Origin: Gemmatimonadota bacterium
Lineage (GTDB): Bacteria > Gemmatimonadota > Gemmatimonadetes > Palauibacterales > Palauibacteraceae
Direction: 5' to 3'
DNA: 64,000 bases
NCBI GenBank assembly: GCA_963666735.1
Contig: OY762926.1
Span: forward strand, 2,495,319-2,559,318
The translations under genes and the position numbers were made by a program. Positions 7,026-60,172 of the stretch are shown here, piece after piece (positions within the stretch are counted from its first letter, which is position 1; each line of letters begins with the position of its first letter). Below the pieces are notes generated by a model. The model had not been told where the DNA came from. It was given only the letters and a program-made list of their open reading frames with translations, and ran no database searches.

Positions 7026-7142
7026 GCCGTATACCTTTGGAGCCCTGGTATCGAATCAAGGGAACCCTCTTTCGAGATTCTGCTGAGGGAGTATAATTGG
7101 TCGTGTATCATTCGAGTGGAAATCTGAGGATCCCAGGAATCT

Positions 7143-8135: not shown

Positions 8136-8183
8136 AGCATTCTTCCTACCCTCGGCAAGCCACCCACGGAACCCTTGAACAAC

Positions 8184-8438
8184 ATGCTAATCGGAGATCA
8201 GCCAGAAATCATCGTCAGATCCCTCCTGCGGACGATCCGCCTCGAGGCGGGTCTGACGCAAGCTGACGTGGCTCGGCAAATCGGGCGGCCCCAGAGCTTC
8301 GTCAGCAAGTATGAATCGGGCGAGCGACGTCTCACGCTGCATGAAGTTCGGTCCATCTGCATCGCGTGCCAAGTCGAGCTCGCCACGTTCGTTCAACGCT
8401 TCGAACGTCACCTCCACGGACCTTCTCATGCAACCTGA
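8184..8438 (+). CDS. Controller (C) protein, XRE-family HTH regulator of restriction-modification system
   Basis: 85 aa, HTH ...GLTQADVARQIGRPQSFVSKYESGERRLTL... (C-protein hallmark ESGER); divergent from MTase, overlaps next gene by 11 nt. Confidence 0.7.
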   Translation: MLIGDQPEIIVRSLLRTIRLEAGLTQADVARQIGRPQSFVSKYESGERRLTLHEVRSICIACQVELATFVQRFERHLHGPSHAT

Positions 8439-9279: not shown

Positions 9280-9306
9280 CGAGACAGTAGTAGCGATTCC
9301 GACGGA

Positions 9307-9801
9307 TCAGCTTCGCCGAGCCCGAAGAGACCCGCCGATGAGGACGCCGACGGGGCCGATGACGAGCATCGCGATGGGGTACCATGCCGGTCCGTAGGGA
9401 TCGCCGGAGGCGGAGAGGCCGGCGAGCGAGGCGAGGCTGAAGAAGACGAGAATCGCCGCCAGGACGCCGGCGTGGAGCCGTGGTGCGCGCGGCGCCGCCC
9501 AGGCCGCGAGGAAGCCGGCCAGGATGGTGACCGCGAGACGCACGCCCAGACTCGTGAAGATGAACGCGACGCCCGGCTCCGTGCCCGGTTCGACGCCGAA
9601 GAGCGACAGCAGGAGCCGGCCGGTGAGCACCGAGCCCAGCGTCAGCACGACGAAGCCCAGGATGACGGCCGCGACGCTGCGCAGGAGCGAGGCATCGTTC
9701 ATGCGCGACCACGTCTCGACCGCTTCGTCGAGGTCGGGACGGTGGCCAGGCGGAGGTCCCGCCGTAGAGGGTCCGGAAATCGAGGGTCCGGAAGGGGTCA
9801 T
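9307..9801 (-). CDS. Small integral membrane protein (4 predicted TM helices), translationally coupled (ATGA) to upstream hydrolase
   Basis: Hydrophobic segments; start ATG 9801 overlaps stop of 9798..11717. Confidence 0.4.
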   Translation of the reverse strand: MTPSGPSISGPSTAGPPPGHRPDLDEAVETWSRMNDASLLRSVAAVILGFVVLTLGSVLTGRLLLSLFGVEPGTEPGVAFIFTSLGVRLAVTILAGFLAAWAAPRAPRLHAGVLAAILVFFSLASLAGLSASGDPYGPAWYPIAMLVIGPVGVLIGGSLRARRS

Positions 9802-11717
9802 CGTGTCCCCTCCACAACGGGCAGGACGATGTGCGATGCCCGGTCGCCGGCGTGGTGGATCATGTTCTCCGCGACCTCCCATTCCGTCTCGTCATAGTTG
9901 TTGCCGCCCGTGTTCAGGTTGCGGTCGAAGCGGGGGAAGTTGGAACTCGAGACCTCGACCCGCACGCGGTGGCCGGGTGCGAACCAGTGCGCCACCGAAT
10001 GGAGGTCCACCCGGACCGGATAGACTTCGCCTTCCTCCATCATCGCGGGCGCCTCGTATCCGTCGCGGTAGCGCGCCCTCATGATGCCCTCGACGATGTT
10101 GATCGCCCGTCCATCGGGATGGACGTCGAGGAGCTTCACGGTGAAGTCGGTGTCTGCGGCGCTCGAACTCACGTAGAGCCGGGCCTCGAGCGGGCCCGCG
10201 ATCTCGAGGCCGTCGCCGGCGACCGGATCGCCGGTGTAGACGAGGACGTCCTCGCGTTCCTCGATGTCCGACTGGTCGAACGCCCCCGGCTGGTCGTCGG
10301 GGTTCCCGGTGCAGCAGACGGATCCGCCGCGGGAGGGGACGGGATCCCCCGGATCATAGACGAACCGGTCGGGAGGTTCGTCCGCGGGCGCTTCGGCGGA
10401 GAGGGCGCCGTCGCCGAGTCTCGTGTTCGCGTTCCCTCCGCTGCGAAGGTAGAGCCGGGTGGTCTCGACCCCGGGGGGCGGCCACGTTTCGGCGGCCGCC
10501 CACTCGTTCCGGCCCATCACGTAGTAGTGAACCTTCGGGATGTCGGTGATGCCGTTGTCCACGCCCTTCAGCCAGTAGTCGAACCAGGCGAGATAGAGCG
10601 AACGGTACGGCAGGCGGGCGTCGCCGAAGTCGACGTCCCCGACCACCGTGTGTTCCGTGGCGCGCTCGGACATGCAGTGGCTGGTGGGAGAGAGGATGAC
10701 GTACTGGTGCGCGCCGCCCCGGTCGCTCACCGCGTTGTCCCGCATCATCCGCCACTGCTGAAGCGTCTCGTTGGCGCCGAGGTCGTACCACGAGTTCACG
10801 TGGAGCGCCGGCGTGTCGAAGCGGTCGGCGTCGCTCAGGTATCCGAGTCCGTCCCACCATTCGTCGGCGAGCGGCGTGCTCAGGACCTCTTCCCAGTCCG
10901 TGTCGCGGTCGGGGGGGCCGTATTTTCGCATGAGGTCGATGGTGGGAAGCTCGCGGAGCGCGGCGAACATCTCGACCGGGGGCGGAGGCTCGCCTCCCGG
11001 GCGCTTCCGTCCGTTGCCGCGGAACCAGCCGAAGCTCGCGGAGAGCCCGAACGCGCCCCCCTCGAAGATGCCGAAGTAGCCGTACCGTCCGCCGGCCGAT
11101 CCGACCGACCCGCCGGCGGCCAGGGGGATGGCGGCGGCGTGCGCCGGGTGGCGCTGCGTCATGAGTTGCGTCTGGTTTTCTCCCAGGTAGGAACAGCCGA
11201 GGGTCCCCACCTTCCCGTTCGACCAGGGCCGGGTCGAAGCCCACTCGACGGCGTCGTAGCCGTCCTCCCGGTCCGCCGCGGAGAGGAGATAGTCCCCTTC
11301 CGACGCATGCTTGCCGCGCACGTCCTGGACGACGACGGCGTACCCCTGCCCCGCGAAGAACCGCGCCGGGGAGATCGCGCCGGCCCGATAGGTCGCCTTG
11401 TCGTACGGCAGCCGGATCATGACGACGGGAAGGCGGTCACCGCGGCCGGCGGGGTCGGCCGGCAGGTAGAGGTCCGTCGCGAGGCGAACCCCGTCCCGCA
11501 TGGGGACCATGAGGTCCGTTTCGACCCGCACCTCGAACTGCGCTTCCGGCATCGCATGGGGATCGGCCGGATCCGGCGCGAATCGATCAAGGGCGGAGGC
11601 GGCGTCCGGTCCGCTTCCGCCATCGGCGAGCCGGGCCGGGGGCGCGTCTCCAGCGCCGGCACAGGCGGTGAGCGCGGCCGCCAGGGCGATGACGATTCCC
11701 GGCCGAGATTTGTCCAT
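9798..11717 (-). CDS. CocE/NonD family hydrolase (S15 X-Pro dipeptidyl-peptidase-like), lipoprotein
   Basis: MVPMRDGVRLATDLYLP..., GCSYLG nucleophile elbow, C-terminal beta-sandwich; signal MDKSRPGIVIALAAALTACAG; start reassigned to ATG 11717. Confidence 0.75.
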   Translation of the reverse strand: MDKSRPGIVIALAAALTACAGAGDAPPARLADGGSGPDAASALDRFAPDPADPHAMPEAQFEVRVETDLMVPMRDGVRLATDLYLPADPAGRGDRLPVVMIRLPYDKATYRAGAISPARFFAGQGYAVVVQDVRGKHASEGDYLLSAADREDGYDAVEWASTRPWSNGKVGTLGCSYLGENQTQLMTQRHPAHAAAIPLAAGGSVGSAGGRYGYFGIFEGGAFGLSASFGWFRGNGRKRPGGEPPPPVEMFAALRELPTIDLMRKYGPPDRDTDWEEVLSTPLADEWWDGLGYLSDADRFDTPALHVNSWYDLGANETLQQWRMMRDNAVSDRGGAHQYVILSPTSHCMSERATEHTVVGDVDFGDARLPYRSLYLAWFDYWLKGVDNGITDIPKVHYYVMGRNEWAAAETWPPPGVETTRLYLRSGGNANTRLGDGALSAEAPADEPPDRFVYDPGDPVPSRGGSVCCTGNPDDQPGAFDQSDIEEREDVLVYTGDPVAGDGLEIAGPLEARLYVSSSAADTDFTVKLLDVHPDGRAINIVEGIMRARYRDGYEAPAMMEEGEVYPVRVDLHSVAHWFAPGHRVRVEVSSSNFPRFDRNLNTGGNNYDETEWEVAENMIHHAGDRASHIVLPVVEGTR

Positions 11718-14923: not shown

Positions 14924-15169
14924 GTGGCAAGCATCACAATTCGGAACCTGGGCGACGGAGTGAAGCGTCGGCTTCGGGTTAGAGCGGCGAAGAACGACCG
15001 TTCCATGGAGGAGGAAGCACGGGTGATTCTCCGGAAGGCGGTCGACCGGGAGGAGATGCCCGCGAAGGGCTTGGGAACGGCGATCCACGAGCTGTTCGCC
15101 CCTCTGGGTGGCGTGGAGCTTGAGATTCCTCCCCGCGAGCCGATGCGTGAACCGCCACGGTTCGACTGA
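14924..15169 (+). CDS. vapB: VapB/FitA-like ribbon-helix-helix antitoxin
   Basis: MASITIRNLGDGVKRRLRVRAAKNDRSMEEEARVIL. Confidence 0.7.
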   Translation: MASITIRNLGDGVKRRLRVRAAKNDRSMEEEARVILRKAVDREEMPAKGLGTAIHELFAPLGGVELEIPPREPMREPPRFD

Positions 15170-15178
15170 GTCACGCCG

Positions 15179-15601
15179 ATGTTCGTCCTCGACACGAATG
15201 TCGTCTCGGAGTTGATGCGCGGAGTCCCGCAGCCTGAAGTGCTTGCGTGGGTCGACGACCGTGCGAGGCGCGATTTGTTCGTCACCGCGATTACGGAAGC
15301 GGAAGTTCGAACCGGGATCGCCATTCTGCCGGCCGGCAGGCGCCGGCGGGACCTGGCGCATGTGGCGGATCGGTTCTTCGCGGACTTCTTCACAAACCGA
15401 GTGCTGCCGTTCGATGCTTCGGCGGCGAGAGCGTACGCGGTGATCACCGCCGGGCGACGGGCCGCGGGACGCCCGATCGGTCAACTCGACTGTCAGATCG
15501 CGGCCGTCACTCGTTGCCGAGGCGCAGCCCTGGCGACGCGAAACGTGAGGGATTTCGAGGGTACCGGGATCGATGTCCTGGATCCCTGGGCCGCAGTCTG
15601 A
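15179..15601 (+). CDS. vapC: VapC PIN-domain ribonuclease toxin
   Basis: MFVLDTNVVSEL... PIN acidic residues; 10 nt after antitoxin. Confidence 0.8.
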   Translation: MFVLDTNVVSELMRGVPQPEVLAWVDDRARRDLFVTAITEAEVRTGIAILPAGRRRRDLAHVADRFFADFFTNRVLPFDASAARAYAVITAGRRAAGRPIGQLDCQIAAVTRCRGAALATRNVRDFEGTGIDVLDPWAAV

Positions 15602-15659
15602 CAGCAACTTGCCCGGCATCCTGCGGGAGGTGCGGCTTCTCCATGGGCTCCGGGGGCGC

Positions 15660-17330
15660 ATGCGTGACGGGGTGCGGCTCTCGGCGGATGTCTATCTGCC
15701 CGCTTCCGGAGGCCCTTTCCCCGCCATCCTGACGCGGACGCCTTACGAGAGCGGCCGGGACGTATTCGTCGAGAACGGCGTGTGGTGGGCGGAGCGCGGG
15801 TACGCGTTCGTGGTGCAGGACTGTCGCGGGCGGTCCGAGTCCGAGGGCGTATTCCACGCGTATCTCCCCGAGATCGAGGACGGGTACGACACCCTGGAGT
15901 GGCTGGCCGGGCAGGCGTGGTGCGACGGGAAGATCGGAATGTGGGGGCGCAGCTACGGCGGCCTCACGCAGTGGCTGAGCGCGCCGCTCGGGAGCCCGCA
16001 CCTCACCTGCATGGCGCCGCATGTGATCTGCGACGACCACTTCGGGGACTGTCACTACCTCGGCGGCGCCTTCCAACTGCTTCTGTCGCTCGGCGCGGCC
16101 GTGATCTGGGAGACGAACCTCGCGACCGTGACAGGCCCGCAGGCCGCGCGCCTGTTTCAGAACCCGAAGTTCTGGGCCCACCTGCCCATCATCGAGATGG
16201 ACGAGCGCGCGATCGGGCGGAAGATCCCGTACTGGAGGGAATGGCTGGAACACCCGACGCGGGACGAGTACTGGCGTCGGCTCCGGGTCACGGATCGCTA
16301 CGACCGCGTCACGGCGCCGGTGTTTCAGCAGGGCGGCTGGTACGACGCGTATTCGGGTTCGCTGCTTCGAATGCACGAGGGGATGTCGGGCGCCGCGACC
16401 CCGCGCGCCCGCACGCAGAGCCGGAGCCTGCTCGGACCCTGGTCGCACGAGATCCCGGAGACGAGGACGGTCGGGGACCTCGACTTCGGACCCGGCGCCT
16501 GGGTGGACGTGCGGAAGGAGGAGCGGCGCTGGTTCGACTGGCAGCTTCGCGGCATGGACGACGGGATCGGTGAAGACCCGCCGTTGCGCTGGTTCACGAC
16601 GGGTGCCAACCGGTGGCGGGGCGGCGCGGGGTGGCCGCCGCCGGGGACGGAGGAAGTGCCTTGGTATCTGCACAGCGACGGGCGCGCGAACCGGGACGAC
16701 GACGCGCGCCTCGATCCGGAGCCGCCGGGGGACGAACCCCCCGACCGCTTCGAGTACGATCCGCGCGATCCGGCGCCCTCGCTCGGGGGCAATCTCTCTT
16801 CCCGGCTGATCACGACCCACGCCGAGACGCCGATGCGGGGCGGTCCCGTCGAGCAGGCGCCGATCGAGCGGCGGCCCGACGTGCTTGTCTATACGTCGCC
16901 GGCTCTGGAGGACGATCTCGAGGTCACGGGGCCGGTCGAGGTGGTGCTTTACGCCGAGTCGTCGGGGCCGGACACGGACTTCGTGGCGCGGGTGACGGAT
17001 GTCGATCCGGCGGGGGGATCATTCGTGCTGACGGAGGGGATCCTGCGCGCACGGTATCGCGGCGGGTTGAGCCGGACCGAACTGCTCGAGCCCGGCGAGG
17101 CGGCGGAGCTCCGGATCCGGCTCTACCCGATGAGCCATGTGTTCCGGGCCGGCCACCGGATCCGGCTTCAGGTCACGAGCAGTTGCTTCCCCCGCTTCAG
17201 TCGCAATCTCAACACCGGCGAAGACGTGGGGACCGGCACCCGCATGCGGACGGCCCGCAACACGGTGCTGCACTCGACGGCCTGTCCCTCGCACGTCCTG
17301 CTGCCGGTCCGCGCGGGCTCATCCGGCTGA
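15660..17330 (+). CDS. CocE/NonD family hydrolase (second paralog); alternative start 15573
   Basis: MRDGVRLSADVYLP, GRSYGG, C-terminal galactose-binding-like domain. Confidence 0.75.
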   Translation: MRDGVRLSADVYLPASGGPFPAILTRTPYESGRDVFVENGVWWAERGYAFVVQDCRGRSESEGVFHAYLPEIEDGYDTLEWLAGQAWCDGKIGMWGRSYGGLTQWLSAPLGSPHLTCMAPHVICDDHFGDCHYLGGAFQLLLSLGAAVIWETNLATVTGPQAARLFQNPKFWAHLPIIEMDERAIGRKIPYWREWLEHPTRDEYWRRLRVTDRYDRVTAPVFQQGGWYDAYSGSLLRMHEGMSGAATPRARTQSRSLLGPWSHEIPETRTVGDLDFGPGAWVDVRKEERRWFDWQLRGMDDGIGEDPPLRWFTTGANRWRGGAGWPPPGTEEVPWYLHSDGRANRDDDARLDPEPPGDEPPDRFEYDPRDPAPSLGGNLSSRLITTHAETPMRGGPVEQAPIERRPDVLVYTSPALEDDLEVTGPVEVVLYAESSGPDTDFVARVTDVDPAGGSFVLTEGILRARYRGGLSRTELLEPGEAAELRIRLYPMSHVFRAGHRIRLQVTSSCFPRFSRNLNTGEDVGTGTRMRTARNTVLHSTACPSHVLLPVRAGSSG

Positions 17331-38961: not shown

Positions 38962-39098
38962 AGCGGAGCTGCGGGATCGCGGAGGCCACCGCGTTGTCGG
39001 TCACATGTGAGCAGCAAAACCGGTTGTTGCCCATCTAAGGCCAGAAGTGATCGACAAGATCGGGATCAGCCGGCGGCGATCTGAGGGCTCTGCTTCGG

Positions 39099-39312
39099 TC
39101 ATCCGGGACCGGCATCGAGCAGGTCGAGGATGAAGGCGAACTCGAAGGCGAGTTCCTCGTACTCCCGGTCCCGGCCGGAGCCGCCGCCGTGGCCCGCGTC
39201 CATGTGCGTCTTGAGGAGCAGGCGGTTCTCGTCCGTCTTCGTCGCGCGCAGCTTCGCGACCTTCATCTTCCCGTCCTCGTACCACGCCCGGCCCAGTTCC
39301 TGTCCGCACCGG
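39099..39312 (-). pseudogene. Degenerate partial duplicate of oligopeptidase B 3' end (two non-contiguous pieces joined: ~96% identical to 40971..41116 and 41506..41551)
   Basis: Direct nucleotide comparison within window. Confidence 0.6.
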
Positions 39313-39324
39313 CCTCGGGCCGCC

Positions 39325-39480
39325 AACCCGCCCACGCCGCTTTCTCTCGTAACCACAGCGGAGGGCGGCCTGCTGCCCGGCGTCGACCTCGATGATTCCG
39401 CAGCCCTCATCGGATCCGTGGAAGACAGCGTTTTGATCCCTCCCGACGGCAACGTCTTGGTCTACGCCCCACCATCAAGA
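39325..39480 (+). pseudogene. Partial duplicate (~90% id) of vapB 3' end / vapC 5' start (cf. 37096..37252)
   Basis: Direct nucleotide comparison within window. Confidence 0.55.
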
Positions 39481-39567
39481 CAATCGAGAACGTATTCGTA
39501 TCGGCCCAAGACAGCCAATCCAATCGTTACCGTGTCAGATGCACTCGGCGTCCAGCAAGATCTATCC

Positions 39568-40752
39568 TCAACCTGGGGCAATTTCGATCCGGTATTTTAT
39601 TATGCGTGGCAAGTCGAACATGGAGGCCTCAAGAAGCCATACGTAGTCGGGCGTCGCCAGTAAGGGACGCTGGTAATCGGCGAGGGTGACTCTAGCCAAG
39701 GCACCCTCACTCTGCGTCGCAAGGACCCAGTTCGCCTCTCGAGACGCCGACCGTTCACGCCCGATCCAGATTGCGCCCGCTGATCCTTGGATCAAATCGT
39801 TGAGCGGTGGATAGTATCGTGGAACATAGATTGCCTCTCGCAATTGACGTGCTATTTCCTGCGTTGGCCTAGCCGCCTGTCCACGACTTCCGGGTCGCGT
39901 TGAATTCTGGCGACCCAACTCATCCACCACACTGTCCACGGCCGCAGCCGTCAAACGCATCGGCCGGTAACGCAGCGCCACGCTGGTGTCGCGTCGGCCA
40001 TCAAAGTGATACCGCTCCACCACAATAAGTGCTTCGTCGTCCGCTTCGACAACTGCCCGCGCCGCCAGCGCGTAACGTTCCGTTCCTCCGAACGCCACTG
40101 GGGCTCGTTCGCTGAACGGTTGCTGCAATCTCGCGACGCCGCCAGTGCGCCCAGAGGGGCGCAACAGCATGTGTTCGTGCCACACTTCGCTCGCGACTAG
40201 TGAATCCAGCAGTCCTTCGTTCGCATGCCATCGCCACCATAGCACCCGACCCCGCCCACTCGGATCGCCTGACACGCCATTCAGAGGCAGCGGAGATCCG
40301 ACGATGGAACCATCCGGTGCCAATCTCAGACGTTGACCAGTGGCCCGCCCCGGAACGTCCGGAGTGACCGTTTCCAAGAGAGCACCATCTGGTAAGAACC
40401 GCGTCACGCGACCAAGTAAGGGGTCCGAAGTCCAGACTGTGTCGCCGTGGGCACCTAGGCCGTCAAGCCACCGAAATTCCCCCGGCCCATCACCCGCCCG
40501 TCCAATCTCCCTTCCGTACGACCCATCCCTGTCGAATACGAGCACTTCCGTTTGTCCCCCCAACAGTACTGTTCCATCCGACAGTTCCCAGAGATACGAC
40601 GGTCGCCTGCTGAGCGGAGCGTTCAAGACGTCTATCGCCGCGACTTCGACGAGCCTGGCCGAGGGCAATTCCTCTTCGTGCGGTATGGCCTGACCGAGAA
40701 CCGGAGCAGCCCATACGCTCAGCGGAGCCAAGCGTGCCAGCCGGATGCACAT
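39568..40752 (-). CDS. Secreted beta-propeller (NHL-like) protein, paralog of 3707..4978, in lower-GC patch
   Basis: Signal peptide MCIRLARLAPLSVWAAPVLG; family resemblance; upstream part of the 39568..41526 track ORF is out-of-frame overlap with ptrB. Confidence 0.5.
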   Translation of the reverse strand: MCIRLARLAPLSVWAAPVLGQAIPHEEELPSARLVEVAAIDVLNAPLSRRPSYLWELSDGTVLLGGQTEVLVFDRDGSYGREIGRAGDGPGEFRWLDGLGAHGDTVWTSDPLLGRVTRFLPDGALLETVTPDVPGRATGQRLRLAPDGSIVGSPLPLNGVSGDPSGRGRVLWWRWHANEGLLDSLVASEVWHEHMLLRPSGRTGGVARLQQPFSERAPVAFGGTERYALAARAVVEADDEALIVVERYHFDGRRDTSVALRYRPMRLTAAAVDSVVDELGRQNSTRPGSRGQAARPTQEIARQLREAIYVPRYYPPLNDLIQGSAGAIWIGRERSASREANWVLATQSEGALARVTLADYQRPLLATPDYVWLLEASMFDLPRIIKYRIEIAPG

Positions 40753-40949
40753 CCGCAGCCTACAAGCGGTAGGCCGAATCACAGCGAAATCTGCGCAGTC
40801 AACGCTCGGACCCGCCTCGCCGCCTCGACGTCGTAACGCCGCGTCGCTTCGTCCAACAGCTCGATCACGGGTAAGTGACTCCAACGTCTCTGGTTGATCG
40901 CGCTCACTCCGGGTTGGCAGAGTAAGATGGAGCGGTCGACCTATCAAGT

Positions 40950-43130
40950 TTAGCGCGGCGCAGTCTCCTCCAGCAGGTCGAGGATGAAGGCGAACTCGAA
41001 AGCGAGTTCCTCGTACTCCCGGTCCCGGCCGGAGCCCCCGCCGTGGCCGGCATCCATGTGCGTCTTGAGGAGCAGGCGGTTCTCGTCCGTCTTCGTCGCG
41101 CGCAGCTTCGCGACCCACTTCGCCGGCTCCCAGTACTGGACCTGCGAGTCGTGGAGACCCGTCGTGACCAGCAGGTTGGGGTAGTCCTTCGCCTCCACCT
41201 GGTCGTAGGGGGAGTAGGAGAGCATGTAGCGGTAGGACTCGAGTTCGCTCGGGTTGCCCCATTCGTCCCATTCGAACGTCGTGAGCGGAATCGACTCGTC
41301 CAGCATCGTCGTCACGACATCGACGAACGGGACGTGCGCGACCACCCCCCGGAACAGTTCCGGCCGCATGTTCACGACCGCGCCCATGAGCAATCCCCCG
41401 GCGCTTCCGCCGCGCGCGAAGAGCTTCTCCGGGCTGGTGTAGCCCTGCGCGACGAGGAAGTCCGCCACGTCCACGTAGTCGGTGAAGGTGTTCTTCTTGT
41501 TGAACATCTTCCCGTCCTCGTACCACGCCCGGCCCAGTTCCTGTCCGCCGCGGATATGGGCGATCGCGTACACGAACCCGCGGTCGAGGAGGCTGAGGCG
41601 GGTGGAGGAGAAGGTGGGCTCCATGCTCGCCCCGTATGAGCCGTAGGCGTAGAGGAGGAGCGGGTTGTCGCCGTCCTTCTCGAGACCGCGCCGGTAGACG
41701 ACGGACACGGGGACTTCCACGGCGCCGTCGCGGGCGGGGGCGTGCAGCCGTTCCACCACGTAATCCCCCCGGTCGTAGCCGCCCAGGACCTCGTCCTCCT
41801 TGAGCAGCGTACGCTCGCGCGTGGACATGTCGTAGTCGTAGACCGAGCGCGGCGCGGAGAGCGAAGTGTACCCGTAGCGCAGGATGTTCGTGTCCAGTTC
41901 GGGGTTGGCGGACAGCGAGGCCAGGTAGGCCGGCTCGTCAAAGGCGATCTCGTGCTCTTCCCCTTCCCACTCGCGGACGCGCAGGCGGGTGAGCCCTCCC
42001 TCGCGCTCCGAGAGCACGAGGTAATCCCGGAACAACTCGAACCCCTGCAGGAACACGTCGCTCCGGTGCGGGACGACGGTCTCCCACTGGTCCGTCGCCG
42101 TCCTCTCGACGGGGGTCCGCATGAGCTTGAAGTTCTCGGCCCCGCCGAGGTTGGTGCGGATGTAGAAGTGGTCCCCGAGGTGATCGAAGCGGTGCTCGTG
42201 CCCGCGCTCGCGCGGGAGGAAGAGGGTGAACTCGCCCTCGGGATCGCTAGCATCGAGGAACCGGTGTTCGTCCGCCAGCGTGTGGGAGGAGGAGATGACG
42301 ATGTACCGCTTCGACTTCGTCTTGCGGACGCGGGAACTGAACTCCTCGTCGTCCTCCTGATAGACGAGCACGTCGTCCGCCGGATCGGCGCCCACGCGGT
42401 GCCGGTAGATCTGGTACGAGCGCAGGGTGCCGGAGTCCCGCCGCGCATAGAAGAGCGTCCGGTTGTCCTCGGCCCACACCATGTTGCCGGAGGCGCCCTC
42501 GATGGACTCCGGGTAGTCCTCTCCCGTGTCGAGATTCCGGATGCGGATGGTGTAGATGCGGCGCCCGCGCGTGTCCTCGGCCCACGCCATCAGGTCGCCG
42601 GCAGTGCTCACCGCGGGAAAGGCGGAGTAGTAATCGTGTCCTTCGGAGTGCGCGTTGACGTCGAGGATGACCTGCTCGGTCGCGTCGAGCGATCCGCGCT
42701 TCCGGGCGTAGATCGGATAGTCCCGGCCGTCCTCGGTGCGGCGGTAGTAGAAGAAGTCGCCCTCCCTCACGGGCACGGAGAGGTCGCTCTGCTTGATCCG
42801 GCCCTTGATCTCCTCGAACAGCTCCGCCTGGAGACCCCCGGTGTGCGCCATTAGCGCATCGGTGTAGGCGTTCTCCTCCTCCAGATACTCGATGACGGCC
42901 GGGTTGTCGCGCTGGTTCAGCCAGTAGTAATTGTCGATGCGGGTGTGCCCGTGCGTCTCCAACTGTTCCGGGATCACGCGTGCGACGGGGGGCGCGACCC
43001 CGGCGTCGGCCGGGGACTCCGGGGCGGGGTCGGCACCCTCCCCGGTGCAGCCGGCGGCCTGGACGCTCACGGCGAGCAACGCCGCGACGAGGGGGAAACG
43101 GTCACGGCATGCTGCCTTCGCTCGCGGCAT
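40950..43130 (-). CDS. ptrB: Oligopeptidase B (S9A prolyl oligopeptidase family), lipoprotein
   Basis: Full-length; GGSAGGLLMG serine elbow; beta-propeller + catalytic domain. Confidence 0.9.
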   Translation of the reverse strand: MPRAKAACRDRFPLVAALLAVSVQAAGCTGEGADPAPESPADAGVAPPVARVIPEQLETHGHTRIDNYYWLNQRDNPAVIEYLEEENAYTDALMAHTGGLQAELFEEIKGRIKQSDLSVPVREGDFFYYRRTEDGRDYPIYARKRGSLDATEQVILDVNAHSEGHDYYSAFPAVSTAGDLMAWAEDTRGRRIYTIRIRNLDTGEDYPESIEGASGNMVWAEDNRTLFYARRDSGTLRSYQIYRHRVGADPADDVLVYQEDDEEFSSRVRKTKSKRYIVISSSHTLADEHRFLDASDPEGEFTLFLPRERGHEHRFDHLGDHFYIRTNLGGAENFKLMRTPVERTATDQWETVVPHRSDVFLQGFELFRDYLVLSEREGGLTRLRVREWEGEEHEIAFDEPAYLASLSANPELDTNILRYGYTSLSAPRSVYDYDMSTRERTLLKEDEVLGGYDRGDYVVERLHAPARDGAVEVPVSVVYRRGLEKDGDNPLLLYAYGSYGASMEPTFSSTRLSLLDRGFVYAIAHIRGGQELGRAWYEDGKMFNKKNTFTDYVDVADFLVAQGYTSPEKLFARGGSAGGLLMGAVVNMRPELFRGVVAHVPFVDVVTTMLDESIPLTTFEWDEWGNPSELESYRYMLSYSPYDQVEAKDYPNLLVTTGLHDSQVQYWEPAKWVAKLRATKTDENRLLLKTHMDAGHGGGSGRDREYEELAFEFAFILDLLEETAPR

Positions 43131-49958: not shown

Positions 49959-51227
49959 CTACGGTCCGAGGGCCGCGACGGGGATTACGGCGACACCGTC
50001 CGCACGTTCGTATGCATAGCCATCGTGGACGATAACGCAGAGGGCTGCCGGTTCTCCACACCGGTCCGTATCCACCCGCTGCGCGAACTTGAGCAGGATC
50101 TTGGCGGCGTCGTCGATCCGGTGCGTACCCAGCTTGACTTCGAAGGCGGCCCAACGGCCGGGTCCCCCGTCGACGATGACGTCCACCTCCAAACCTGTGT
50201 TGTCTCGATAGTGGTACACGTGCGCATCCATGGCTTGGGCGTAGACGCGCAGATCCCGCACGACCAGCGACTCGAACAACAGCCCAAACCACGCGATATC
50301 ACTCATTAGATGACGGGCGTCCGCACGGAGCGCCGCGGTGGCCACCGATGGGTCCGCGAAGTGCCGCTTGGGCGTGGACCGCAGCCGTGAGCGCGAGCGG
50401 AGATGGGGTCCCCAGGGAGGCTGCGGCTCGATAAGCATGAGGCGTTGCAGTGTCGCCAAGTAGGTGTGCGCCGTCCCTTCGCTCAGCGGCGGCCCCGGCC
50501 CGCCGACGTCCGCCGCCAACGTCGAGATGGATGCGGTCGTCGATACGTTGCGCGCGTACGACTGCAGCAGCCGGCTCACGCGCTCCGGGTTATGCCGCGT
50601 TCCGTCCAAGTTAGGGACGTCGGTCCGGCAGACCTCTTCGATGTAGTCCCGGTTCGCCCGCAGAGCCGCGCGTGGCGACTTTCCAAGGTTGGCGGGCCAG
50701 CCGCCGAAACAGACGAGGTCGGCGAGCGCCCTCGCGCCCAGTCGAGCCTCCGAACCCGGTACGCGTTCGCCGCCCAGGACGGCCCGGAGCGACACGGATC
50801 CGGTGGACCGGCCCAGTTCGAACAAGGACATGGGCCGTAGGCGAAGTCGGCTGACGCGGCCCGCGCCGGAATGACGCGTGATGTCATCCGACGGCACGGC
50901 GGAGCCCGTGAGGATGAACTGCCCCGCCGCCTGGCGGTCGTCCACCGCGCGCCTCATGTGATTCCAAAGTCCGGGCTCCAGCTGCCACTCGTCCAGGAGG
51001 CGAGGTGCCGGGCCCGCCAGTAGCTCGGCCGGATCCAGCCTGGCGAGCCGGCGGGCCGTCTCGTCCACATCAAGGAGTACCTGGCTGCGCGCGAGGCGCT
51101 GCGCCGTCCACGTCTTGCCGGAGGCGCGCGGTCCTTCGATGAGAACGGTGCCCGCCGCCGCGAGGCGTTCCTCCAGCTCCGCGTCCGCGACCCGCGGGCG
51201 GTAGCCCTGTGTAGATGCCATCGTCAC
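49959..51227 (-). CDS. AAA-domain ATPase with DUF4143-like C-terminal region
   Basis: GPRASGKTW Walker A; typical 420-aa architecture. Confidence 0.7.
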   Translation of the reverse strand: MTMASTQGYRPRVADAELEERLAAAGTVLIEGPRASGKTWTAQRLARSQVLLDVDETARRLARLDPAELLAGPAPRLLDEWQLEPGLWNHMRRAVDDRQAAGQFILTGSAVPSDDITRHSGAGRVSRLRLRPMSLFELGRSTGSVSLRAVLGGERVPGSEARLGARALADLVCFGGWPANLGKSPRAALRANRDYIEEVCRTDVPNLDGTRHNPERVSRLLQSYARNVSTTASISTLAADVGGPGPPLSEGTAHTYLATLQRLMLIEPQPPWGPHLRSRSRLRSTPKRHFADPSVATAALRADARHLMSDIAWFGLLFESLVVRDLRVYAQAMDAHVYHYRDNTGLEVDVIVDGGPGRWAAFEVKLGTHRIDDAAKILLKFAQRVDTDRCGEPAALCVIVHDGYAYERADGVAVIPVAALGP

Positions 51228-54525: not shown

Positions 54526-55398
54526 ATGCCCAGAATCATGCTTGCGGACAACCTCGACGCGCTCCGGCGCCTGGCCGATGGCCACGCGGATCTCATCTAC
54601 ATCGATCCGCCGTTCAACACCGGCCGGACGCAGCAGATGACGCGGGTTCGGACGCGTCGCGTCTCACCGGGTGAAGGCGGAGACCGGACGGGCTTCCAAG
54701 GGGCGCGCTACGAGACGACCGCTTGGGGCACGCGCCGCTTTGCGGACCGGTTCGACGACTACCTCGAGTTCCTCGGCCCCCGGCTCGTCGAGGCATACCG
54801 CGTTCTCGCTCCGCACGGGTCTTTCTACCTCCACGTCGACTACCGGGAGGTGCACCACTGCCGCGTCTTCCTGGACGACCTGTTCGGGCCGGAAAACCTC
54901 CTGAACGAGATCATCTGGGCGTACGACTACGGCGCGCGGCCGAAGACGCGGTGGCCGGCGAAGCACGACAACATCCTGTTCTACGTGAAGGACCGGACCA
55001 ACTACGTCTTCAATGTGGATGAGATCGAGCGCATCCCCTACATGGCGCCGGGGCTCGTCGGGCCCGAGAAGGCCGCGCGCGGCAAGCTGCCCACGGACAC
55101 CTGGTGGCACACGATCGTCCCCACGAGAGGCGCCGAGAGGACGGGCTATCCGACCCAGAAACCGCTCGGCATCCTGCGCCGCATCATCACGGCTTCCTCG
55201 AATCCCGGCGACCTCGTGCTCGACTTCTTCGCGGGCAGCGGCACCACCGGCATGGCCGCCCACGAACTGGGGCGAGACTTCATCCTCGTCGACGATAACC
55301 CCGAGGCACTCGAAGTGATGGCGAAACGGTTCGAATCCATGCGCGGCGTCCGCTGGGAGGGCTTCGACCCGCCCAAGATCTTGGAATCACATGCATAG
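54526..55398 (+). CDS. Beta-class DNA methyltransferase (N6-adenine or N4-cytosine), orphan or partner of adjacent unknown genes
   Basis: DPPF (motif IV) near N-terminus followed later by FFAGSGTTG (motif I). Confidence 0.8.
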   Translation: MPRIMLADNLDALRRLADGHADLIYIDPPFNTGRTQQMTRVRTRRVSPGEGGDRTGFQGARYETTAWGTRRFADRFDDYLEFLGPRLVEAYRVLAPHGSFYLHVDYREVHHCRVFLDDLFGPENLLNEIIWAYDYGARPKTRWPAKHDNILFYVKDRTNYVFNVDEIERIPYMAPGLVGPEKAARGKLPTDTWWHTIVPTRGAERTGYPTQKPLGILRRIITASSNPGDLVLDFFAGSGTTGMAAHELGRDFILVDDNPEALEVMAKRFESMRGVRWEGFDPPKILESHA

Positions 55399-55590
55399 CA
55401 TCGACTTGCGTGCGCGCCACGGCCCGATTCCGTGTTGTCTTCGCCTCCTCGGGAAACCCTCGTCCGGCTCCACGAGTCGCATGCAACGGCGGACCGGCAA
55501 CGGTGGCCCGGGCGGGTTGCTCGCTACACGAACAACCTCCATTCTGCTCGACGTTCGTCGATTCCTGGCCTGGGGTGAGGGGAGGAGGGA

Positions 55591-56124
55591 GTGGGGGAAA
55601 AGGTCCTTGATCTGGGCGACCTGGGCGACGGAACCATGGTCGGGCTGAGCCCGGAAGTTGGAAGCTCCTTGGCCCAAGCGGGTGCCGTGTGCCTGGAATC
55701 GCAGTCTCACGTGCCGGGGGTTGACCTAGCGGTCACGGGCAGGATCGTGGGCACGCATCCCCTGCACTGGGAACCTCCGGATGATCAGGCACGCCTTTCC
55801 TGGGGCAACGAGATCGACGCGACCGAGGACGGCGCGGCGGGGATCGCCCTTCTGTTGGCCCGTCGGTTGATGAACCTTGTCGTGATGAGCCGATCTCGGC
55901 ACGGCACCGGCTTCGACTACTGGCTGGGCGGGGACACCGCCGAACCCCCGATCCAAGGTGCGGTCCGTCTGGAGGTGTCCGGTGTTCGCAGTGGACCGTC
56001 CGCCGTTGTGGCGCGGCGATTGAAGCAGAAGCTGGACCAGATGCAACGTGGTGACCCGACGTTCGCGGGCTATGCGATCGTGATCGAATTCGGACGACCA
56101 ACGACCGCCGTGGCAACACCATGA
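55591..56124 (+). CDS. Hypothetical protein, no recognisable domain; GTG start with GGAGGAGGGA SD
   Basis: ORF + strong RBS + ATGA coupling to next gene. Confidence 0.4.
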   Translation: MGEKVLDLGDLGDGTMVGLSPEVGSSLAQAGAVCLESQSHVPGVDLAVTGRIVGTHPLHWEPPDDQARLSWGNEIDATEDGAAGIALLLARRLMNLVVMSRSRHGTGFDYWLGGDTAEPPIQGAVRLEVSGVRSGPSAVVARRLKQKLDQMQRGDPTFAGYAIVIEFGRPTTAVATP

Positions 56125-57218
56125 ACGAGTCGCGCACCGCTCACGATCGGGCGATGGACCTTGCGTTTCTTGCGGATCGATCCAAGGCGGCAGGCAACTT
56201 GGAGGAAGCCGGCCGGCTCTATGCGCAAGCCTTGGAGCGCGAGTTGGCGGCGCTGCGCGCCCTCCGAGACCCGGCCCCCGTTACGTTCGCGGTCATGCAT
56301 CGGAGCGCCGCTTGGCTAGCTCTGGAATGCGATGACGTCCGGCTCGCCGAGAAGCTCGCGTCCGCCGGACTTGCAGGAGACCCGCCTCCCGAGATTGCTG
56401 ACGAACTGCGCGAAGTCTGGGAACAGGCCAATTTCCACCGGCACCTCTATGCACGAGGGGTTGTCCTCTCGGATAACGAGATTCAGATGACCCTTTCGGG
56501 CCCCGGAGTGGGCTTGGGCATTACCGAATGGACGGGATATCGCACCCGCGTGGACCACACGTTGCGCATGATCACCCGCATCACCGAAAGAAGAGCGGAG
56601 CGGCCGTTCAGGTACGGGAAACCTCCCGGAGTCGAGATCCAAAAGCACCTGAGTCCGCATGTCTCCCTAGCGAAGGCGGCGAGCTACTCGGTGTCCATCC
56701 GACTAGGGGCTGACCAACTGCGCTTTCCCGGGCTGGACCTGCCTGAGATGCCGGACGTGATTCACGACTTCTTGACGATCGTCGAGAAAGTGAACGGCGC
56801 CGGCGACGATCAGCTTGAAGAGACGATCCCGGACGCCTCCTATCGTCGAAACGCCCTCGCCCTTGCCAAGAAGATCGCTCCCGACGGTAAGAGCATCAGA
56901 CAGGTCGGATTCGCGGCTGCGGGGGTTGAAGGGCGTCGCACGATTGGATTCACTCGCACGAGGAAGGAGGTCCGGCCACCCGCCATCGACCGCACACAGG
57001 AGGAGGAGGAGGTTGAGATCCACGGTACCCTGCTGTTTGCGGATGCTCGGAGTAGCAGCAACGAGATCAGGATCGTTGCTGACGACGGTGATCACAAAGT
57101 AAAGGTTCCACCTGAAATGATGGACGATATCGTTCGTCCGTTGTGGAATGCGGCGGTTTCGGTTCGAGGCGTGCGGCGCGGCAAGTCTGTCACTTTGACA
57201 GAAATCGACCCCTCATGA
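56121..57218 (+). CDS. Hypothetical protein (helical/TPR-like N-half, beta-rich C-half), translationally coupled to preceding gene
   Basis: ORF, coupling, lower GC than flanks. Confidence 0.4.
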   Translation: MNESRTAHDRAMDLAFLADRSKAAGNLEEAGRLYAQALERELAALRALRDPAPVTFAVMHRSAAWLALECDDVRLAEKLASAGLAGDPPPEIADELREVWEQANFHRHLYARGVVLSDNEIQMTLSGPGVGLGITEWTGYRTRVDHTLRMITRITERRAERPFRYGKPPGVEIQKHLSPHVSLAKAASYSVSIRLGADQLRFPGLDLPEMPDVIHDFLTIVEKVNGAGDDQLEETIPDASYRRNALALAKKIAPDGKSIRQVGFAAAGVEGRRTIGFTRTRKEVRPPAIDRTQEEEEVEIHGTLLFADARSSSNEIRIVADDGDHKVKVPPEMMDDIVRPLWNAAVSVRGVRRGKSVTLTEIDPS

Positions 57219-57312
57219 GGCGCCGCTGTGACGTGAACGACGTCATCGAGGGACTCGGCACCCAACGGCGGCGACGGGTGGAGGAGCCGCTGCTGAACTC
57301 ATCGCGGAGGAA

Positions 57313-57537
57313 ATGACGCTGCGCGAGCTGCGCAAGGCCCGGCGGCTCACCCAAGTCAGCCTGGCACGCCAACTCGGCATAGGCCAGGAAGGCATATCGC
57401 GGCTGGAAAAGCGTAGTGACCTGCTCCTCTCGACTCTGCGCAGGACCGTTGAGGCCATGGGAGGTAGGCTCTCGCTGGTCGCGAGGTTCCCCGACCGGCC
57501 GCCCGTCGAGTTGTCCGGCATCGCCGATCCGGAATAG
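57313..57537 (+). CDS. XRE-family HTH protein (antitoxin/regulator-like)
   Basis: MTLRELRKARRLTQVSLARQLGIGQEGISRLEKR. Confidence 0.55.
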   Translation: MTLRELRKARRLTQVSLARQLGIGQEGISRLEKRSDLLLSTLRRTVEAMGGRLSLVARFPDRPPVELSGIADPE

Positions 57538-57763
57538 AAACCCCGATTCCCAGTCCTTCGAGTCCGCCGGGCGCGCGGCGGCGCGACTTGGCGGGCCAAG
57601 GCCCGCGGTCTGCCGCGGCAAGCCGGAAGCGTAACGCTAGGGCCGGTTGTGCCGCCTCTCGCGTCTCAACATGTTTGCCCATGTCCATCAAGAATCATCC
57701 CGCATAACCGATGGATTCATCCAAACCGCCACGGTCCATCGTCCGGTCGGAGTGGGGGACGCG

Positions 57764-60172
57764 GTGAGGCGTTTGTCGCGTCTTCGCTCGGCCGAGCTCG
57801 CGACTCTCGGACTTGTCACCGTCCTCGTTCCGGGCTGCGGGAGCGAGGAGACGGCTGGACCGCCACCCCCTTCGCCGGAACCCCCGCGACCGGCCTCCAT
57901 CTCGGTCACTCCGGCCACAGTCACGCTGACTGCCCTGCGAGACACAGTTTGGCTGGTGGTGGAGGTGCGCGACCAGCGCGGCCGTCCGTTGGAGGGCGCG
58001 GCGGTGGCTTGGGCGAGCGGCGATCCGGCGGTGGCGTCCGTCGAGGGTTCCGGGCTGGTGACGGCCGTGGGCAACGGGACCGCTTCGGTGTCGGCGACTT
58101 CCGGGGCGTTGTCGGCTATGGCGTCGCTGACCGTGACGCAGGAAGCGAGCCGGGTGGCGGTCACGCCAACGGCGGCCACGCTGGTCGCCGGCGACACGCT
58201 GCGACTGTCAGCGGAGGCGTTCGACGCGAACGGGCACGCGATGCCGGGAGCGGCGTTCGCGTGGAGCACAGACAACGCGGCGGTCGCGACCGTCGATTCC
58301 ACTGGTTTGGTGCGCGGGGTGGCCGAGGGGACGGCAATGATCGCGGCGTCGGCGGGGAGCGCGGAGGACACGGCCGATATCGTCGTGGAAACGGATCCCA
58401 ACCGTGCCGCCTTGGTGGCGCTCTACGAAGCGACCGACGGGCCGAACTGGGTGAAGAACGAGAACTGGCTCACCGATCGCCCGCTCAACGAATGGTACGG
58501 CGTTGCGACCGATGAACTGGGCCGAGTCGTTGGCTTGCACCTGGCGGACAACCGGCTGGCTGGCCCGATCCCGCAACTGCTTGGGCATCTCGAACACCTG
58601 ACTTATTTGGCCTTCTGGGACAACAAACTCACCGGCTCGATCCCCGTCGAAATGGGGAAACTCACTCGCTTGCAGTGGCTGTACATGCGCGGGAACAGAC
58701 TGGCGGGGCCTTTGCCGCCGGAGCTAGGAGGTCTCACCAATCTCATAGACATGCGCTTGGACGGGAACGTTCTCAGCGGTCCGATCCCGGCAGAGTTCGG
58801 CGAGCTCGCCAACCTGACGTTCCTTGACCTTGGCGGGAACGCTCTTTCGGGGTCCGTGCCGTCCGAGTTGGGCGACCTGACCGGCTTGGCGCAACTTCAT
58901 CTCGGCTGGAACGCCCTATCGGGCGCGATCCCATCGGAACTCGGAAACCTCGCCAGCTTGACACACCTGGTGCTCGCTTCGAACGACCTCTCGGGTCCGA
59001 TTCCCGAGAGTTTTCTGGAGCTCACCGCGCTTGAGACCTTCAACTTTCTTGGGAACCCGAACCTGTGCGCTCCGGGCACAACCGGTTTCGTGACTTGGCT
59101 GGAGGGCATGGGCGAGACGTCCGGGCCGTATTGCAACGCTTCGGACATGGGCGTGCTGGAGCGCCTGTACGAAACTGCGGGGGGATCGGATTGGACGAAT
59201 TCCAATGGTTGGATCGAGACGCCCGCGCTCGAAGAATGGTACGGCGTTTCGGCGAACTCGCTTGGACAAGTCGTGACGCTCGATCTTACGAGCAACAATC
59301 TCGTGGGTGATTTGCCGGCCGACCTGGGTGCGCTGACCGAGTTGACCGCAATGCGGATCGGCGGCAACGCGCTGTCCGGTCGGCTGCCGGTTTCCCTGGC
59401 CGGTCTCCCGCCCCTTGACGAGTTGCACTACGCCGATACCGGGCTGTGTATACCCGGCGAGCTTCGTTCGTGGCTCGGCGGCATTCCGTCGCACGAGGGT
59501 ACGGGCGGGGAGTGCGATCCCGTGACGGTCCGTGCGGTGTATGCGCTTCCTTCCGATCGGGAGTATCTCACCAGGTACCGCGACGGGATCAGCAACGCAC
59601 TGCGGCAACTACAAACGTGGTACGGGGAACAACTCGGAGGACCAACCTTCCGGCTCTACGATACGATCCCGGACCGTTGCGACATGCCCCGGGAGCACGA
59701 TTACTACCGGCACGGCGGGTGGCCGAGGGTATGGAACGAAGTGCTGGCCGCGGTTCAGCGATGCGCCGACGTGAAGTATAACTCCGCGGAGCATGTCTGG
59801 CTGGTGTTCGCGGACGTCGACGAACGTCCCGGAGAGTGCGACGATCCCGGTGTTGTGAAGGGGCTGGGACGAGGTGGCGGCGGGATCGCGATGGTGAGTT
59901 GGTGGGACTTGGAGGGGTTGAGCGATCCGAACTTCGAACTCTGTCCCTACGGCGTTCTAGGGATGGGAAAATGGATAGGCGGCGTCGGCCATGAACTAGG
60001 CCATGCCTTCGGGCTTCCGCACCCACTGGGCTGCGAGGAGCGCCGCGAGGACTGCGCTGAGGGGACCCGCAAGTGGGACGCGCTTATGTGGTACGGATTC
60101 CATTATTGGCCGGACACCTACCTACTGGAGCCCGAGAAGGAGTACCTGCGCACAACGCCAGCCTTCCGTTAG
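57764..60172 (+). CDS. Multidomain lipoprotein: 2x Big_2 Ig-like, two plant-type LRR modules each with LRRNT-like cap, C-terminal metzincin-like Zn-protease domain; GTG start 57764
   Basis: Lipobox LVPGCGS; 24-aa LxxLxLxxNxLSGxIPxxLGxL repeats; HELGHAFGLPH (HExxHxxGxxH). Confidence 0.65.
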   Translation: MRRLSRLRSAELATLGLVTVLVPGCGSEETAGPPPPSPEPPRPASISVTPATVTLTALRDTVWLVVEVRDQRGRPLEGAAVAWASGDPAVASVEGSGLVTAVGNGTASVSATSGALSAMASLTVTQEASRVAVTPTAATLVAGDTLRLSAEAFDANGHAMPGAAFAWSTDNAAVATVDSTGLVRGVAEGTAMIAASAGSAEDTADIVVETDPNRAALVALYEATDGPNWVKNENWLTDRPLNEWYGVATDELGRVVGLHLADNRLAGPIPQLLGHLEHLTYLAFWDNKLTGSIPVEMGKLTRLQWLYMRGNRLAGPLPPELGGLTNLIDMRLDGNVLSGPIPAEFGELANLTFLDLGGNALSGSVPSELGDLTGLAQLHLGWNALSGAIPSELGNLASLTHLVLASNDLSGPIPESFLELTALETFNFLGNPNLCAPGTTGFVTWLEGMGETSGPYCNASDMGVLERLYETAGGSDWTNSNGWIETPALEEWYGVSANSLGQVVTLDLTSNNLVGDLPADLGALTELTAMRIGGNALSGRLPVSLAGLPPLDELHYADTGLCIPGELRSWLGGIPSHEGTGGECDPVTVRAVYALPSDREYLTRYRDGISNALRQLQTWYGEQLGGPTFRLYDTIPDRCDMPREHDYYRHGGWPRVWNEVLAAVQRCADVKYNSAEHVWLVFADVDERPGECDDPGVVKGLGRGGGGIAMVSWWDLEGLSDPNFELCPYGVLGMGKWIGGVGHELGHAFGLPHPLGCEERREDCAEGTRKWDALMWYGFHYWPDTYLLEPEKEYLRTTPAFR

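Follow-up and report, generated by a model that had tools for sequence, protein, structure and literature searches.

A PD-(D/E)xK-fold protein and its TPR partner form a candidate mobile conflict cassette beside an orphan DNA methyltransferase in a Gemmatimonadota genome

A DNA methyltransferase followed on the same strand by two overlapping genes of no known family and a short helix-turn-helix (HTH) gene raises the question of how many of these genes belong together, and whether those that do form a restriction-like, abortive-infection or toxin cassette. The locus lies at positions 54526-57537 of a 64,000-nucleotide stretch of a Gemmatimonadota bacterium of the family Palauibacteraceae (assembly GCA_963666735.1, contig OY762926.1, positions 2,495,319 to 2,559,318 of the forward strand), the whole of which is referred to as the window. 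The overlapping genes, orf177 and orf365, encode proteins of 177 and 365 amino acids. On balance our analysis favours a reading in which this pair constitutes a self-contained, mobile nuclease-regulator conflict cassette of an undescribed family, with the methyltransferase (MTase) and the XRE-type gene as bystanders. The features of the pair are:

55580-55590, plus strand: GGGAGGAGGGA, a Shine-Dalgarno-like sequence immediately 5' of the orf177 GTG start
55591-56124, plus strand: orf177, 177 aa, GTG start, PD-(D/E)xK fold, predicted nuclease effector
55825-55827 (E79), 55915-55917 (D109), 55972-55980 (E128-x-S130), 56029-56031 (K147) and Q150, plus strand: putative active-site residues of orf177
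56121-56124, plus strand: ATGA stop/start overlap coupling the open reading frames (ORFs) of orf177 and orf365
56121-57218, plus strand: orf365, 365 aa, its ATG inside the ATGA overlap with the orf177 stop
56121-56450, plus strand: orf365 residues 1-110, TPR-like helical domain, probable orf177-binding module
56478-56960, plus strand: orf365 residues ~120-280, alpha/beta middle domain
57006-57218, plus strand: orf365 residues ~296-365, stop codon counted in, five-stranded OB-topology beta-barrel

A preliminary description, made from the letters of the DNA, had proposed the four-gene layout, and all of its ORFs lie where it had placed them; the MTase motifs, the GTG start behind GGGAGGAGGGA and the ATGA overlap are likewise present. 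It had assigned neither coupled ORF to a family, and database searches led to the same result, with no match for orf177 or orf365 in Pfam or NCBIfam, or in PADLOC-DB v2 (including Hachiman, Shedu, Gabija and the PDC candidates) at E≤0.1. Both are real genes, and not ORFs that arose by chance from high GC, because they have many homologues and show ratios of nonsynonymous to synonymous substitution (dN/dS) of 0.2-0.4 against sister genomes. In a protein collection clustered at 90%, orf177 has 423 homologues (best E 1e-112) and orf365 has 196 (best E 1e-238), all named 'hypothetical' and without a Pfam domain, and a hidden Markov model scan of 1.84 billion representatives puts the orf177 family at no fewer than 2,399 clusters of 50% identity at E≤1e-3. 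Among four Palauibacter-type genomes, namely that of the window and the sister genomes L008, L089 and L094, orf365 has a dN/dS of 0.20 and orf177 one of 0.22-0.40, leaving out the orf177 comparison with L008, which is invalid owing to a start-codon offset. The GTG start of orf177 is also found in L089 and L094.

The nature of the orf177 product is indicated by its structure model. The AlphaFold2 model, built on a 56-sequence alignment (pLDDT 92.7), has the alpha-beta-beta-beta-alpha-beta topology of the PD-(D/E)xK core, with an N-terminal helix and hairpin before it, and its best structural matches include Holliday-junction resolvases. From this model we confidently predict a protein of the PD-(D/E)xK (restriction-endonuclease-like) fold. 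A profile search against PDB sequences gave no credible match, only one at chance level (E 0.82). The expected catalytic positions in the model are taken by E79 on helix 1, D109 on strand 2, E128-x-S130 on strand 3, and K147 and Q150 on the helix that follows. Among 147 representatives no more than 50% identical to one another, D109 and R143 are kept in all 147, E128 and S130 in 146, H40 in 144, K147 in 143, Q150 in 142 and E79 in 139. At the level of fold orf177 is comparable to minimal PD-(D/E)xK nucleases such as the archaeal Hjc resolvase (1GEF) and the NOV_C nickase domain of HmaA. It differs from them in having no sequence-level relation (Pfam, NCBIfam and PADLOC being negative), in its invariant serine in place of the (D/E)xK lysine together with an invariant Lys and Gln on the following helix, in an extra N-terminal subdomain of a helix and a beta-hairpin, in which Cys34 and His40 are invariant, and in being always paired with a TPR protein. 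Conservation of this extent suggests that the enzyme is active, even though the canonical lysine is displaced.

The partner protein is modular. In its AlphaFold2 model (pLDDT 86.9), orf365 consists of an N-terminal TPR domain, an alpha/beta middle domain of no detectable relative and a C-terminal OB-like barrel. The N-terminus has the helical-repeat fold of TPR proteins and profile matches to PDB sequences are limited to this part. Weak matches of the N-terminus to the VPS4 MIT domain (E 0.008-0.1) were also seen. Residues 112-365 returned nothing credible even at E≤10, either as a profile against PDB sequences or with family members run singly against Pfam. The middle domain carries the conserved motifs SGPxVGxG, ERxxxxPFRxRG and APDG. 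The modelled barrel has the topology b1-b2-b3-helix-b4-b5, its helix bearing an invariant MMDDIVRPxW, and Foldseek matches it to the CusF and SilF barrels with probability 1.0 and a target template-modelling score of 0.63-0.66; over CusF, SilF and eIF5A the probability is 0.96-1.0 with weak E-values (0.008-0.05). A PolD chain was matched as well, which we take as lying in the PolD OB domain, and we read the orf365 C-terminus as OB-like at fold level only. Among the folds that the preliminary description had suggested looking for, structure models and searches thus identified PD-(D/E)xK in orf177 and TPR and OB in orf365.

The TPR domain also occurs without the remainder of orf365. In three lineages, Armatimonadota among them, the gene after orf177 encodes a TPR-only protein of 110-127 aa, and such partners (110-121 aa, from Armatimonadota and others) match positions 1-107 of the orf365 profile at E 1e-34 to 8e-42. 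A short pair of this type with a 4-nucleotide overlap (WP_015217606 and WP_015217607) is carried by pANACY.01, a conjugative plasmid of Anabaena cylindrica PCC 7122 (L187, NC_019772.1 80261-81183), where RefSeq labels it as two hypothetical proteins. Two entries of the protein database, P0314 and P0385, are orf177-TPR fusions. In addition, three phage contigs from IMG/VR carry a gene for a homologue of the TPR domain of orf365 by itself and no orf177; these homologues are 40-51% identical and end exactly at the domain boundary:

L183 5000-5350, IMG/VR contig: phage TPR-only homologue
L184 7989-8333, IMG/VR contig: phage TPR-only homologue
L185 1247-1606, IMG/VR contig: phage TPR-only homologue

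These phage genes adjoin a virion structural (capsid) gene, RecE/RecT genes or a phage helicase, and by their sequence and setting are candidate anti-defence proteins or antitoxin mimics. Given the TPR-only partners, the orf177-TPR fusions and the stand-alone phage copies, the TPR domain is probably the part of orf365 that binds the nuclease.

The two genes almost always occur together. The genome survey covered 80 loci with orf365 relatives, 78 of them non-redundant, in which an orf177 homologue was sought by hmmsearch. In ~76 of the 78 the gene directly preceding the orf365 relative on the same strand is an orf177 homologue. Of 82 junctions between the two, 62 show a stop/start overlap of exactly -4 and most of the rest one of -8 to -17, which bears out the coupled pair of the preliminary description. 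One Dehalococcoidia genome (L068) has three orf365 paralogues (8746-9837, 9983-11074 and 15039-16127), of which two stand in tandem without orf177 and one belongs to a complete pair 4 kb downstream; an N6_N4 MTase relative lies ~8 kb upstream.

Hosts of the pair belong to at least 10 phyla and are mostly uncultured, including Gemmatimonadota, Rhodothermales, Acidobacteriota, Chloroflexota (many of them Dehalococcoidia), Latescibacterota, Nitrospirota, Planctomycetota, Bacteroidota, Thermodesulfobacteriota and others. The cultured species Rhodocytophaga aerolata and Herpetosiphon aurantiacus DSM 785 also carry it, the latter as a long-form pair on the chromosome (L066, CP000875.1 ~1,602,882-1,604,542, minus strand); the Herpetosiphon aurantiacus and pANACY.01 pairs bear hypothetical-protein labels at most, or are unannotated. 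The distribution is patchy, with at least 135 matching stretches among 185,579 species represented by one genome each. Pseudogenised or degraded copies occur at L012, L080 and L095, and full pairs are found on five IMG/VR contigs. DNA identity of 71-75% to Longimicrobiales, Rhodothermales and Bryobacterales genomes starts at 55603-55606 and ends at 57208-57218. As this cross-phylum similarity is bounded by the ends of the pair, the pair would move without the MTase or the XRE gene, and on such sequence evidence it is horizontally mobile across orders and phyla.

Base composition separates the same two genes from their surroundings. Total GC is 0.65 for orf177 and 0.61 for orf365 against 0.676 for the window, a modest dip. 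The contrast is clear in GC at third codon positions (GC3), where orf177 has 0.74 and orf365 0.70, while the MTase has 0.87 and the three genes before it have 0.81-0.93. The lower-GC islet described previously therefore holds for orf177 and orf365, clearly in GC3 and modestly in total GC, and does not extend to the MTase, which is host-like in GC3. No direct or inverted repeats that might mark an integration site were found flanking the pair; no sigma-70-like promoter was found around it, terminator-like hairpins are weak, and an Rfam scan of 53.8-58.2 kb gave zero matches. Other low-GC stretches of the window, at 7001-9000 (0.55-0.58) and 39001-41000 (0.61) against a mean of 0.68, may also be acquired islets.

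The genes around other copies of the pair point to a conflict setting in part of the family. When the two genes nearest to the pair on either side were scanned with Pfam and PADLOC, the families found were very mixed, the commonest being SNF2 helicases (HmaA/DrmD-like in PADLOC), DUF1156 methylases, DUF499 ATPases and type I restriction-modification (RM) subunits; the counts are approximate, because in GC-rich loci some shadow ORFs were miscalled by the heuristic gene caller. A conserved third gene of the pair was considered and rejected, ORF clusters within 6 kb recurring in at most 7 of ~77 loci. In at least nine loci (L001, L009, L010, L011, L027, L032, L037, L052 and L057) the pair is located inside Hma/BREX-related operons, where it is inserted at different positions in two subtypes. 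At L001, L027, L032 and L037 its neighbours, on both sides or on one, are a DUF1156 methylase and an SNF2 helicase that has a NOV_C nuclease domain; at L009, L010 (= L088), L011 and L052 it is part of a tightly overlapping operon, DUF499-DUF7680-orf177-orf365-DUF1156(-SNF2); and at L057 DUF499 comes directly after it. In the SNF2 helicases of L009 and L057 Pfam detects no nuclease domain. Five loci have type I RM genes at most two genes downstream of the pair, and such genes are also present in L093. This repeated placement inside or beside defence systems, together with the horizontal mobility of the pair, supports the preliminary description in part. At a locus of a different kind, L003/L029 3941-7128 (one Dehalococcoidia genome), the pair follows Peptidase_M48 and PspAB genes with PspA/PspAA nearby; this setting, seen beside the weak VPS4 MIT matches of orf365, is probably coincidental.

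Anti-phage activity of HmaA has been shown by experiment, and the hma region is documented as a hotspot at which defence genes insert (PMC11232893). In the main text of a 2026 survey, stand-alone PD-(D/E)xK genes embedded in such operons are described as auxiliary or backup effectors and as the commonest embedded class (PMC12839542); that main text makes no mention of TPR, and no description of such a pair was found in it. No description of the pair was found in the literature on two-gene systems of a TPR protein and a nuclease, and DUF7680 has no mention in the searchable literature. The DUF499-DUF7680-pair-DUF1156(-SNF2) arrangement (L009 5743-18026, L088 5845-11487, L011 and L057) is common at high identity to metagenome-assembled genomes of Longimicrobiales, Rhodothermales and Bryobacterales, and may represent a BREX-related subtype in which the nuclease is supplied by the pair.

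Taken as a conflict cassette, the pair could work as follows. Translational coupling would provide orf177 and orf365 in a fixed ratio, and the TPR domain of orf365 would bind orf177 in a complex that holds the nuclease inactive, much as in a toxin-first toxin-antitoxin (TA) pair. The middle and OB domains of long-form orf365 would serve as the sensor, probably for nucleic acid or a phage product. Infection or DNA insult would then release or activate orf177 to cut DNA or RNA, leading to restriction or abortive infection, while the short form would be a plain TA-like pair.

Several observations weigh against this interpretation. Most loci, above all in Dehalococcoidia, have metabolic surroundings and no defence neighbour. 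The pair is rare on plasmids, had no match among the isolate phage genomes searched, and its phage TPR-only homologues amount to three or four cases only. In orf365 no HTH, ribbon-helix-helix or AbrB DNA-binding domain was found, unlike in classical antitoxins. Finally, the orf177 motif is E-x-S, with a near-invariant serine where the lysine of (D/E)xK is canonical, and catalysis would need K147 from the next helix.

The pair resembles several known systems in design. In Hachiman a PD-(D/E)xK nuclease, HamA, is restrained by its partner HamB. The partner in the window comprises TPR, the middle domain and OB and is not a helicase, and there is no PADLOC Hachiman match, so the pair is not a member. 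Toxin-first type II TA systems such as higBA and mqsRA likewise place the enzyme gene first, with the gene of a small helical partner overlapping its stop; the short forms of the pair (175 and 115 aa), their mobility and presence on a conjugative plasmid, and the partner-only copies in phages add to this likeness. Like such systems the pair consists of two adjacent, co-translated genes that are mobile and patchily distributed. It differs from them in that long-form orf365 adds 250 residues of extra domains and contains no antitoxin-type DNA-binding domain for autoregulation. The two-gene BcTir/BcTpr systems and TPR-sensor Avs proteins also join a TPR module and an effector enzyme in the context of phage defence, a likeness of design only, since the effector of the pair is PD-(D/E)xK and not TIR and there is no STAND ATPase. 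A further likeness is with the auxiliary or backup nucleases of Hma/DUF499-centred BREX-related operons, so far as the main text of the survey describes them (PMC12839542, PMC11232893), in which the pair appears in the orders SNF2-pair-DUF1156 and DUF499-DUF7680-pair-DUF1156-SNF2. However, the window has no DUF499, DUF1156 or SNF2 gene and hence lacks the core of such a system, and most copies of the pair lie outside them. Because it matches no component model, has a partner that is not a helicase and not an antitoxin of the DNA-binding kind, and lacks these core genes in the window, the pair belongs to none of Hachiman, the toxin-first TA systems or the effector-plus-TPR systems and is best read as an undescribed nuclease-regulator cassette.

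A more ambitious account is that the pair is a portable effector of nuclease and sensor which plugs into methylation-based immunity, cutting on behalf of DUF499/DUF1156/SNF2 (BREX-related) operons whose helicase lacks a nuclease, re-paired in Palauibacter with an unrelated beta-class MTase, and countered by the phage TPR copies. We regard this as fairly unlikely. It borders on an explanation in which the MTase of the window is itself a functional component, forming an RM-like trio where the MTase marks self DNA, orf177 restricts and orf365 is the specificity or regulatory subunit; put more generally, the pair would be a plug-in nuclease for methylation-based systems. The gene concerned is:

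54526-55398, plus strand: MTase, 290 aa, beta-class N6/N4 DNA methyltransferase, from the ORF listing and direct reading

The MTase matches PF01555 N6_N4_Mtase (E 1.7e-46) and PADLOC MTase_II PDLC03300 (4e-136), and its motif order, DPPF then FFAGSGTTG, is that of the beta class, with catalytic and S-adenosylmethionine-binding motifs present. In favour of a trio, MTase, orf177 and orf365 are all under purifying selection, and every intact member of the closest clade of the window's pair (≥70% identity) adjoins a DNA MTase, although of different families: N6_N4 in the four Palauibacter-type genomes, and DUF1156 in L009, L010, L011, L052 and L095. The pair could also supply the nuclease that is not detectable in the SNF2 helicases of L009 and L057. 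The distribution of the MTase argues otherwise. Its homologues adjoin the pair in the four Palauibacter-type genomes only, at one identical site between an SDF transporter gene and a cupin gene, so that this adjacency represents a single evolutionary event. None of the best 80 MTase relatives (metagenomic, 56-79% identity) has an orf177 or orf365 homologue nearby, and by our tally an MTase of any kind is nearby in only about one-fifth of pair loci. The MTase lies outside the block of cross-phylum DNA similarity, differs from the pair in GC3 as given above, and is separated from orf177 by a gap of 192 nucleotides containing a weak terminator-like hairpin.

The MTase family has, moreover, a partner of another kind. 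Downstream sequence was sufficient in 62 relatives, and in 10 of these the MTase homologue is directly followed by the gene of another small protein, of ~195 aa and with a D...E-V-K motif. Its sequence suggests that this protein, A6, is probably the family's own restriction endonuclease (REase) of PD-ExK type; it has a DS.AD...E-V-K-F-S motif and no Pfam model, is fused to the MTase in three metagenome loci, and is absent from the window.

L099, L105, L114, L116, L119, L123, L149, L153 and L167: A6 putative REase, immediately downstream of an MTase homologue

That a small PD-ExK REase holds, in these relatives, the position of orf177 in the window favours the trio by analogy, but orf177 is unrelated to A6 (hhalign probability 0.3%), and we rejected it as the cognate REase of the MTase family. 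No co-inheritance of MTase and orf177, as expected of the two enzymes of a type II RM system, was found. The family is very widespread and mostly orphan, and the MTase is best described as a resident orphan type II MTase family member beside which the pair came to lie. Its part in the module, as proposed in the preliminary description, is not sustained, and an RM-like trio is in our judgement unlikely; an MTase beside uncharacterised genes is insufficient ground for calling an RM-like module.

We consider it doubtful, too, that the pair has no role in conflict and is a DNA repair or recombination factor, in which a small Hjc-like structure-specific nuclease would act with an OB/TPR DNA-binding partner and the defence neighbours would be coincidental. 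This would account for the Holliday-junction resolvases among the best structural matches of orf177, for the OB-like domain of orf365 and for the ordinary metabolic neighbourhoods of most loci, one of which adjoins uvrA. It sits poorly with the very patchy distribution, the transfer across phyla at 70-75% DNA identity and the pseudogenised copies at L012, L080 and L095, and equally with the embedding of the pair in BREX-related operons, its presence on a conjugative plasmid and viral contigs, and the TPR-only copies in phages.

The last gene of the locus had been proposed as the regulator or antitoxin of the cassette:

57216-57537, plus strand: XRE/HTH_37-type gene, decaying, with a 5' remnant at 57216-57317 and a 74-aa HTH ORF at 57313-57537

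The ORF at 57313-57537 matches HTH_3, HTH_31 and HTH_37 and has its own GGAGGA and ATG. A short XRE HTH gene thus follows the pair as described, but it is in fact the 3' part of a longer, frameshifted gene. Alignment with L008, L089 and L094 yields an ancestral gene of ~107 aa with its ATG at 57216, overlapping the orf365 stop; in the window a 1-nucleotide deletion near 57284 has split the 5' part (57216-57317) from the HTH ORF. In the sister genomes the HTH region was lost by three different internal deletions (L008 ~11118-11306, L089 11098-11304 and L094 9098-9286). The four related genomes therefore show parallel pseudogenisation of the XRE/HTH_37 gene. Since it decays independently while the intact pair remains under purifying selection, the gene is not required by the pair as antitoxin or as regulator and was rejected in both roles; unlike a HigA/XRE-type antitoxin, it is frameshifted, although the HTH domain is present, and has no RelE/HigB gene upstream. 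A role for the XRE protein in the cassette, suggested by its position on the same strand 94 nucleotides downstream of orf365, by the ancestral stop/start overlap and by an HTH_37 match with sub-threshold similarity to Y4mF/HipB-type antitoxin models, is very improbable and already largely refuted by the frameshift, by the separate deletions in three sister genomes with an intact pair, and by the finding of no homologue adjoining the pair in any other locus.

The wider surroundings of the locus also vary between genomes. On the minus strand at 49959-51227 of the window, an AAA_14/DUF4143 ATPase gene matches the PADLOC candidate defence family PDC-S01 (6.5e-70); it is missing from the syntenic region of L008 and therefore represents a separate indel ~3.3 kb upstream of the MTase. 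Downstream, at 57647-60172 on the plus strand, an 841-aa protein with Big_2 and leucine-rich repeats and a possible C-terminal metallopeptidase motif is encoded; this gene is missing in L008, L089 and L094, where the cupin gene comes directly. These two indels among sister genomes make 49.9-60.2 kb an indel-rich variable region.

Our results describe two gene families, orf177 and orf365, that are large and spread over many phyla of mostly uncultured hosts and have neither a name nor a database model. The cultured carriers make the pair directly testable, in its long form in Herpetosiphon aurantiacus DSM 785 and in its short form on pANACY.01 of Anabaena cylindrica PCC 7122. Should the pair prove to be a defence or TA cassette, it would constitute a new nuclease-based system and would explain unannotated genes in Hma/BREX-related operons, and the phage TPR-only homologues would be a candidate counter-measure. 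Were the portable-effector account to be true, the pair would be a new defence family to which phages have a matching anti-defence, and an effector module that is exchanged between different modification systems.

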